Shown: in pieces, positions 1 through 747 of the stretch
Layout of the letters: every line of letters begins with the position of its first letter
Numbering within the stretch: the first letter of the stretch is position 1
NCBI RefSeq assembly: GCF_003334385.1
Contig: NZ_QOWN01000147.1
DNA: 747 nucleotides
Source: Escherichia coli
Lineage (GTDB): Bacteria > Pseudomonadota > Gammaproteobacteria > Enterobacterales > Enterobacteriaceae
Direction: 5' to 3' (one strand)
Notes under the pieces: model-generated
Told to the model about the DNA's origin: nothing
Database searches by the model: none
What the model saw: the letters and a program-made list of their open reading frames with translations, nothing else
Position numbers and translations under genes: made by a program

Positions 1-19
1 GTGCCAATCCGGTGTGTGG
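1..19 (+). repeat. 19-bp shufflon-type repeat (putative Rci/sfx recombination site, left boundary of invertible segment)
   Basis: Seen directly: bases 1-19 GTGCCAATCCGGTGTGTGG are the exact reverse complement of 729-747 (19/19); identity stops at base 20 vs 728. From memory the R64 shufflon repeat consensus is GTGCCAATCCGGTNNNTGG (7-bp spacer GTGCCAA plus 12-bp right arm), which this fits. If so, the non-conserved left arm of the full site lies upstream of base 1, outside the window. Confidence 0.75.
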
Positions 20-352
20 CGAACGATTGGTGCACCTGACGGAAGTTACAGCAATCTGGGTTCTCACCGGGGAACATTTAACGGGAGAAATAACGGCAGA
101 GGAACTTTGTTTGTGTACGCTTCCGGTGGAAATGGTGCCGGTGGCGGTGATTGCGCCAACACATCAAATCTTCAGGGCTATGTGAACGGCGCTTTCATTG
201 GTATGAATGCCAGCAATAACCCCTCCTACGGAAAGACAGCATTTATTTCATTTGCCGTGCCAGTGGGAGCGTCATATCAAATCATCTCCAGACCAACACA
301 AAATTACGCCTGTGGTAACGGTGTTTTCTCTGTGTATGCCTATCAGATGTGA
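1..352 (+). CDS. pilV: 5'-partial CDS: alternative C-terminal variable cassette of a PilV-like minor pilin/adhesin (Gly/Asn/Ser/Tyr-rich), stop TGA at 350-352
   Basis: Frame is open from the window edge (codon phase starts at base 2: TGC CAA TCC GGT GTG TGG = CQSGVW) to the TGA at 350-352. The GTG at 14 listed in the ORF track lies inside the repeat with no Shine-Dalgarno upstream, so the true start is presumably upstream of the window. About 20 Gly in 112 residues and 2 Cys (GDCANT, NYACGNG). The gene symbol is inferred from the shufflon context, not from recognised protein sequence. Confidence 0.65.
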   Translation, partial: CQSGVWRTIGAPDGSYSNLGSHRGTFNGRNNGRGTLFVYASGGNGAGGGDCANTSNLQGYVNGAFIGMNASNNPSYGKTAFISFAVPVGASYQIISRPTQNYACGNGVFSVYAYQM

Positions 353-356
353 GTCC

Positions 357-747
357 CTAGCTGGCTTTAACAATGTAGTTGAATGCAATATTTTTGGGAC
401 GCATTTCTGTGGTACTCCCCTGTGCCCAGTATGGCATACCACTATGATGCCCTTTCAGCCATCCGCCACGTTCGTGATAGACGCCTGATTGATCGGCCTG
501 ATAACTCAGGAGTTGTCTGTTCCGATCACCATCAAGTCCCTTCCCGTTATCCCAGCCACGGATAAAAACACCGCGCAGATCGGGCAATTTACAGCTAGGA
601 TAAGCACGGGCAAGCTGAGGATACCGGGAACAGGAAAACGACTGGCCGTTCATCAACAGATAGCCTTGTGGAGGAGTGGCAGATGGCCACGGGATAGGGC
701 TTCCCACCGGGTAGGATTCAAAGCCAACCCACACACCGGATTGGCAC
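357..747 (-). CDS. pilV: 5'-partial CDS: alternative C-terminal variable cassette of a PilV-like adhesin with a phage tail-collar-like motif, stop TAG at 357-359 (read on - strand)
   Basis: On the - strand the frame is open from the window edge (phase starts at base 746: TGC CAA TCC GGT GTG TGG = CQSGVW) to the TAG at 359-357. Contains ...LMNGQSFSCSRYPQLARAYPSCKLPDLRGVFIRGWDNGKGLDGDRNRQLLSYQADQ..., which resembles the conserved core of phage tail-fibre collar domains (NGQ...YP.L...LPDLRG.F.RGWD) as I recall them. No RBS or start of its own. Gene symbol inferred from context. Confidence 0.65.
   Translation of the reverse strand, partial: CQSGVWVGFESYPVGSPIPWPSATPPQGYLLMNGQSFSCSRYPQLARAYPSCKLPDLRGVFIRGWDNGKGLDGDRNRQLLSYQADQSGVYHERGGWLKGHHSGMPYWAQGSTTEMRPKNIAFNYIVKAS
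729..747 (-). repeat. 19-bp shufflon-type repeat, inverted copy (putative Rci/sfx recombination site, right boundary)
   Basis: Seen directly: 729-747 CCACACACCGGATTGGCAC is the perfect reverse complement of 1-19. On the - strand it encodes the same C-Q-S-G-V-W peptide in the same phase as the left copy. Confidence 0.75.

Follow-up and report, generated by a model that had tools for sequence, protein, structure and literature searches.

Perfect inverted repeats at the two ends of a stretch of DNA raise the question of what, if anything, is changed when the DNA between them is inverted. The stretch analyzed here (the window, 747 nt in all) carries the 19-nt repeat GTGCCAATCCGGTGTGTGG at positions 1-19 and, in inverted orientation, at positions 729-747. 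By a uniform-composition estimate, chance alone would yield about 1e-6 such pairs in 747 nt. We observed the anatomy of the sites, their reading frame, the genomic surroundings, alternative fusions on a single backbone, and purifying selection on the cassettes. On this basis, we consider it highly probable that the window is a complete invertible segment ("g-g") from the shufflon of an IncK2/Z (I-complex) conjugative plasmid, in which Rci inversion swaps the C-terminal domain of PilV in frame. The system is already known in detail (Komano 1987; Seiffert 2017, PMC5350095), and the 2017 work on IncK2 plasmids (PMC5350095) had described this very repeat and segment. An earlier note on this DNA had reached the mechanism of C-terminal domain swapping, which demonstrates that the mechanism of an in-frame recombination site can be recovered from raw sequence alone.

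Anatomy of the segment and its sfx sites

A 31-bp sfx site consists of a variable 12-bp left arm, the 7-bp core GTGCCAA, and a right arm of 12 conserved bp, TCCGGTNNNTGG, with crossover taking place in the core (PMC4176322, PMC5350095). Therefore, the window begins and ends exactly at two cores, with the right arms inside and the left arms outside, as shown in Table 1. Both window ends matched the sfx consensus GTGCCAATCCGGTNNNTGG with 0 mismatches. An early reading took the TNNNTGG end of the 19-mer for the spacer and placed the left arm inside the segment; it was dropped because GTGCCAA is the core and the left arm is external to the repeat (PMC4176322, PMC5350095). Further short direct and inverted repeats in the window (D1 to D5 and I2 to I11; 10 to 24 nt, 75 to 92% matched) were treated as chance. 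A CCAATC/GATTGG dyad was seen at window positions 4-9 and 25-30.

Translation from base 2 on the + strand and from base 746 on the - strand yielded the hexapeptide CQSGVW in both directions, as expected from the earlier note's claim that both repeats are read in the same phase. The + frame was open for 116 codons (TGA stop at 350-352), and the - frame was open for 129 codons (TAG stop at 357-359). Thus, the convergent ORFs take up the whole segment, with 4 nt between their ends. Beyond CQSGVW, the + and - products were unrelated (BLASTP E = 8.6), which agreed with the claim that the two proteins share no similarity beyond this point.

Table 1. Features of the 747-nt window and, in the last row, ORFs annotated at silent segment ends (locus coordinates)
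Feature	Position	Strand	Basis
sfx 7-bp core GTGCCAA, crossover region, left-hand site	1..7	+	PMC4176322 (sfx table), PMC5350095; same at 18 of 18 mapped sites
sfx 12-bp right arm TCCGGTGTGTGG, sequence-specific Rci binding arm	8..19	+	perfect inverted repeat with 729-740
Core plus right arm, 19-bp "repeat-g"	1..19	+	named in IncK2 plasmids (PMC5350095)
Partial ORF, 116 codons plus TGA, A-type PilV C-terminal cassette, without its own start codon	2..352	+	translation; pilV fusion in L003
Gap GTCC between the convergent stop codons, 4 nt	353..356	.	read from sequence
Partial ORF, 129 codons plus TAG, PilV C-terminal cassette with phage tail collar/tail-fiber tip domain	357..746	-	translation; pilV fusion in L001 and L002
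sfx right arm, right-hand site, inverted copy	729..740	-	repeat search, sfx site maps
sfx 7-bp core, right-hand site, inverted copy	741..747	-	repeat search, site maps, PMC4176322, PMC5350095
Over-long ORFs at silent ends	L001 4849-5000; L003 5748-5899; L002 4906-5352; L008 3304-3852

The sfx sites were then compared across plasmid loci, which included pJKHS006_1 (L001), pTMSA1088 (L003), R64 (L004), and pO111-110512_1 (L005). The GTGCCAATCCGGTNNNTGG consensus was found in 4 copies in pJKHS006_1, all of them perfect 19-mers, in 8 copies each in L002 and pTMSA1088, and in 7 copies in R64; the chance expectation was 0.01 to 0.03 per locus. In pJKHS006_1, L002, and pTMSA1088, the sites always formed inverted +/- pairs bounding segments. 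The number of R64 sites given in the literature is also seven (PMC11852207, PMC5430464, PMC5350095). R64 has seven sites because one direct-orientation site alone separates two of its cassettes. The left arms varied between sites (GGCAATACTTTC, GCACTGGCCTCC, GCACGGAGGCCA, and TGCAATGTCTCT), and back-to-back neighboring sites were joined by 8-bp linkers in IncK2/Z plasmids and R64 alike. The shufflon of pJKHS006_1 (4506-5747) was a reduced one, with two segments and four sfx sites in the order h-f-g-g; its relatives had four segments and eight sites (L002 3367-5747). In the case of pTMSA1088, the published site order, e-e-h-f-e-e-g-g (PMC5350095), agreed with the map that we generated.

When read inward from the sfx sites of L002, R64, and pO111-110512_1, the CQSG phase was open at 18 of 18 sites for 73 to 129 codons (mean 94), versus means of 16 and 27 codons for the other two phases at the same 18 sites. 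The common phase is therefore not fortuitous. The earlier note had also described the junction peptide CQSGVW as identical. This held for the two ends of the window segment, but system-wide the peptide was CQSG-x-W, in which x is specified by the right arm's variable triplet: IncK2/Z plasmids had V, S, I, or L, R64 had T or R, and pO111-110512_1 had M. At silent segment ends, the CQSG frame was open for at least 50 codons upstream, via the linker and the inverted neighboring sfx site, and continued on the antisense strand of the adjacent cassette. The phase is kept at silent ends because site and linker add up to 19 + 8 = 27 nt, which accounts for the over-long, probably spurious ORFs that RefSeq annotates there as "prepilin, shufflon protein A." RefSeq labels for identical silent cassettes (H1 to H65) were inconsistent, ranging over "hypothetical protein," "phage tail protein," "tail fiber protein," "prepilin, shufflon protein A," and none.

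Plasmid context and PilV fusions

The window was 100% identical to part of the Escherichia coli plasmid pJKHS006_1 (NZ_CP147067.1, IncK2/Z, conjugative) and many further IncK2/Z plasmids, from both E. coli and Shigella, matched it at 99.5% identity or more. The host plasmid type has an IncK2/Z replicon, a MOBP relaxase, and an MPF_I system. In pJKHS006_1, the segment has a site-specific integrase gene on one side and pilV on the other. This locus closes the thin-pilus (type IVb) pil operon, which encodes a type 4 pilin, a prepilin peptidase, a lytic transglycosylase, a T2SS-F-like protein, and an ATPase; tra genes flank the locus opposite the operon. The integrase was 75% identical to R64 Rci over residues 5-377, the C-terminal domain included, and the rci gene of pJKHS006_1 was intact. 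This recombinase, which adjoins the shufflon and lies outside the window, belongs to the tyrosine-recombinase family. L002 and pTMSA1088 represent one backbone, with the accessions of Rci (WP_029391926.1), pilin, and peptidase in common.

The annotated pilV CDS continued into the + cassette in pTMSA1088 and into the - cassette in pJKHS006_1 and L002. The two PilV isoforms of the backbone shared by L002 and pTMSA1088, 444 and 457 aa long, were identical over residues 1-334 (...GAILSCQSGVW) and then diverged completely, and the junction DNA in both was ...ata ctt tcG TGC CAA TCC GGT GTG TGG. Bases 1 and 747, which had been proposed to be third codon positions, are thus each the last base of a TCG serine codon in pilV, provided that the end in question adjoins the gene, and the CDS coordinates agreed. 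The earlier note had further suggested checking the upstream flank for a continuous ORF. Upstream of the junction, the pilV constant region was continuous for 328 codons in pJKHS006_1 and pTMSA1088, with the start codon and ribosome binding site GGAGGG-N7-ATG in the former and GGAG-N9-GTG in the latter. PilV carried the type IV prepilin leader KG|FxLLEIL, and its constant region matched Pfam Shufflon_N (E = 5e-61 and 2e-49); an NCBIfam search of PilV produced no useful model match. These fusions to both cassettes, together with the 18 of 18 open sites, bore out the claim that the recombination site is embedded in coding sequence and that inversion preserves the frame.

A third arrangement was found in L008, which has the same backbone (Rci WP_029391926.1): the segment was internal and silent, and pilV was joined to a different cassette. 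Thus, each of the three expected states occurs in nature, as seen in pTMSA1088, L002, and L008. Single-piece 100% matches to both junction types were also found in several plasmids that are nearly identical. The junction-probe counts of 159 and 198 were mixed, because they included pieces joined across a neighboring segment (e.g., H73, two pieces); only single-piece 100% hits were used, as existence proofs. The earlier note's wording of either one cassette or the other being joined implies a two-state switch and needs refinement. Both fusions exist, but the window segment is a single module in a system of multiple inversions, in which 4 to 8 C termini (4 to 8 sfx sites) alternate, and it can also be internal and silent, as in L008.

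At any moment, only one end of a segment adjoins pilV. In pJKHS006_1, the + end abutted an 8-bp linker and was silent, and this silent + cassette differed by at most 1 base per 747 from copies expressed elsewhere. No terminator-like site was found between the convergent stops (350-359). With these stops only 4 nt apart and lacking a terminator-like structure, pilV transcripts presumably continue antisense through the silent cassette. Deposited assemblies represent single consensus arrangements. Assembling shufflons is a known difficulty (PMC5430464), and otherwise identical plasmids differed in arrangement when verified by PCR and Sanger sequencing (PMC5350095). Shufflons confound plasmid assembly as well as annotation.

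In the mechanism that we propose, Rci, encoded beside the shufflon, would recombine any two inverted sfx sites. The crossover would fall within GTGCCAA, the 7-bp core, and each cassette would carry its 12-bp right arm along. The core and right arm lie inside the pilV frame and encode C-Q-S-G-x-W, and the segments contribute promoterless, start-less partial ORFs that run inward from both ends in one phase. With the site in frame and the partial ORFs in the same phase, every inversion would therefore join the constant 328-residue N-terminal part of PilV to a different C-terminal domain in frame. Here, the alternatives would be an A-type domain (+ strand) and a phage-tail-fiber-like Collar domain (- strand), and expression would be limited to the cassette abutting pilV. 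By analogy with R64, the alternative PilV tips may recognize different recipient lipopolysaccharide (LPS) structures and so determine the recipient range in liquid mating.

Rci catalysis, the restriction to inversion, and the adhesin function of PilV are parts of this mechanism that we infer, by analogy, from the literature. Rci has been reported to bind the right arm specifically and the left arm nonspecifically, to carry out crossover in the core, and to support inversion only (PMC11852207, PMC5430464, PMC4176322, PMC5350095). The PilV C termini of R64 and IncI2 plasmids recognize distinct LPS structures and set recipient specificity in liquid mating (PMC11852207, PMC5430464). The PilV isoforms matter because they set the recipient range of I-complex resistance plasmids. 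In addition, Rci and sfx sites are in use as a shuffling tool in synthetic biology.

The two cassettes and the locked plasmids

The + cassette, named "prepilin, shufflon protein A" in RefSeq, was 71% identical at the amino acid level to a 117-aa R64 cassette located at L004 25145(-). In this comparison pN was 0.21, synonymous sites were saturated, and pN/pS was about 0.24. No Pfam or PHROG domain was found in the + cassette. For window positions 20-349 versus L004 24795-25126, pS was 0.86, which is above the saturation value of 0.75. This synonymous divergence was unusually deep for plasmids with 75% identical Rci proteins.

The - cassette (357-728) matched Pfam Collar (PF07484, E = 3e-12) and PHROG tail-fiber families (E down to 3e-42), and it was 42 to 48% identical, over its full length, to the extreme C termini of tail fibers of P2, HK106, P1-like, Aeromonas, Vibrio, and Erwinia phages. 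Relative to the copy in pO111-110512_1 (87% DNA identity), dN was 0.025 and dS was 0.81, a ratio of about 0.03. The dN/dS and pN/pS values therefore indicated that both cassettes are real coding sequence under purifying selection. None of R64's seven cassettes was a counterpart of the - cassette, and its function is therefore assigned by analogy only. No gene for a tail-fiber assembly chaperone was found near the - cassette in the plasmid. The Collar cassette copy in pO111-110512_1 (IncK2/Z, L005 3447-4389) had different neighbors, and this locus contained three sfx sites in the orientation +,+,- with the triplets GTC and ATG. The comparison of these sequences indicates that cassettes reassort between shufflons.

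Some plasmids appeared to be locked in one state. The rci gene was absent in both inspected plasmids of this kind, L006 (E. coli) and L007 (Shigella sonnei), which are IncK2/Z plasmids, and site mapping in L006 identified a single remaining sfx site. L006 3645-4507 and L007 2645-3507 matched window positions 241-747 only, the + cassette being truncated at window base 241, and both plasmids encoded the same PilV protein, WP_001168171.1, locked on the Collar cassette. The loss of rci and the locking in two related plasmids indicated that the switch is dispensable. Even-step sampling suggested that, of the 415 matching records, roughly 135 belong to the class that matches only window positions 241-747; L006 and L007 were the two members inspected.

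The tail-fiber-like cassette and its locked-on state in some plasmids are the only parts of this locus that may merit follow-up. One tentative idea, which we regard as possible though rather less than an even bet, is that the - cassette is a captured phage tail-fiber receptor-binding tip that provides a recipient specificity beyond R64's seven. Under this idea, fixation of the tip through deletion of rci and the remainder of the shufflon would reflect selection for that specificity, the receptor might be the same LPS core recognized by P2-, Mu-, or lambda-stf-type fibers, the tip would work without a phage tail-fiber assembly chaperone, and the locked state might be common to the larger class.

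Alternative explanations and comparison with known systems

The locked plasmids bear on the possibility that the window is a frozen relic, that is, a segment with shufflon anatomy that no longer inverts in its source plasmid. L006 and L007, which lack rci, are examples of such an outcome, with a single sfx site kept in L006, where the sites were mapped, and the plasmid that matches the window exactly has already lost DNA, with two segments and four sfx sites versus eight sites in its relatives. However, pJKHS006_1 retained an intact rci whose product aligned with R64 Rci through the C-terminal domain, four perfect sfx 19-mers, and a silent + cassette that was itself intact and nearly indistinguishable from expressed copies. 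We therefore view a relic as improbable. A simple two-state switch, in which one segment produces two isoforms and there is no multi-inversion, seems less probable still. Both ends of the segment are repeat-g and the other segments carry e, f, and h repeats, so self-inversion could be favored, but the 7-bp crossover core was identical at all sites, and L002, pTMSA1088, and L008, which have one backbone, differed in segment order, a difference that can arise only if sites belonging to different segments recombine.

Short inverted repeats around invertible DNA are also common to promoter-flipping and serine-invertase switches (Hin, Gin, or fim-like), in which case the coding frames would be incidental, and the - cassette does resemble the tail-fiber tips that are swapped by the Gin and Cin systems. 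Yet the window contained one promoter-like site against 0.8 expected, and promoter-like and terminator-like sites were no commoner than in shuffled sequences. In addition, both inverted repeats were translated inside annotated pilV CDSs, the cassettes were under purifying selection, and the adjoining recombinase was of the tyrosine-integrase type, unlike a serine invertase. Such a switch is already refuted by the type of recombinase and by the in-frame fusions, and we assign it a negligible probability. The two PilV isoforms on one backbone and the chance level of promoter-like sites likewise substantiated the earlier note's contrast between C-terminal domain swapping and promoter flipping. 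Rci inversion of a shufflon segment remained the preferred explanation.

The fim (FimB/FimE) and hin switches resemble the window in that site-specific inversion between short inverted repeats leads to phase variation. In contrast, fim and hin flip a promoter, whereas the window repeats are translated and coding sequence is exchanged. The chance-level promoter-like sites and the location of both repeats within the pilV CDS place the window outside the fim type. Phage tail-fiber inversion systems (Mu G/Gin, P1 C/Cin, e14 Pin, and p15B Min) likewise swap C-terminal receptor-binding domains in frame with a crossover in coding sequence, and the - cassette of the window is homologous to such tail-fiber tips. 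However, the Gin, Cin, Pin, and Min switches depend on serine invertases acting at 26-bp sites and on a Fis-dependent enhancer. The window system uses a tyrosine recombinase and is for that reason no serine-invertase system; its target is a type IV pilus adhesin, and its sites are sfx 19-mers. A fusion of PilV to a phage tail collar domain under programmed inversion has been described among pilus genes at CP084655.1 (Milman et al. 2023, PMC9881135). Its domains, Shufflon_N (PF04917) and Collar (PF07484), are the same pair as in the fusion of PilV to the - cassette, and the two were likened by domains only.

The window belongs to the R64-type shufflon family, and every defining feature of that family that could be tested was found. 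The shufflon has been the textbook case of multi-inversion C-terminal swapping since 1986-87, and the R64 Rci, sfx, and pilV studies are reportedly those of Komano et al. (1986/1987) and Gyohda et al. (2002). Like the R64 (IncI1) shufflon, the window system has an identical 7-bp core and right-arm consensus, inverted site pairs with 8-bp linkers between them, a 75% identical Rci, a Pfam Shufflon_N constant region, a position at the end of the pil operon, and a + cassette that is 71% identical to one R64 cassette. The left arm at the pilV end is also similar (GGCAATACTTTC in R64 and pJKHS006_1; GGCGATACTTTC in L002 and pTMSA1088). Unlike R64, the window carries the triplet GTG ("repeat-g"), which is absent from R64 sites, and the relatives of the window plasmid have 8 sites versus 7. 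The window segment is 747 bp in length versus 493 to 574 bp for the R64 segments that are bounded by inverted site pairs, and it pairs the A-type cassette with a Collar cassette, whereas R64 pairs its A-type cassette with an unrelated 73-aa cassette.

The IncK2 shufflons of pTMSA1088, pDV10, and pDV45 (Seiffert et al. 2017, PMC5350095) represent the same element as the window; the window was 99.9% identical to pTMSA1088. Compared with these IncK2 shufflons, pJKHS006_1 has a two-segment, h-f-g-g version, and its PilV constant region has diverged from that of L002 and pTMSA1088. Its full-length PilV was 70% identical to that of pTMSA1088, a figure that includes the differing C-terminal cassette.
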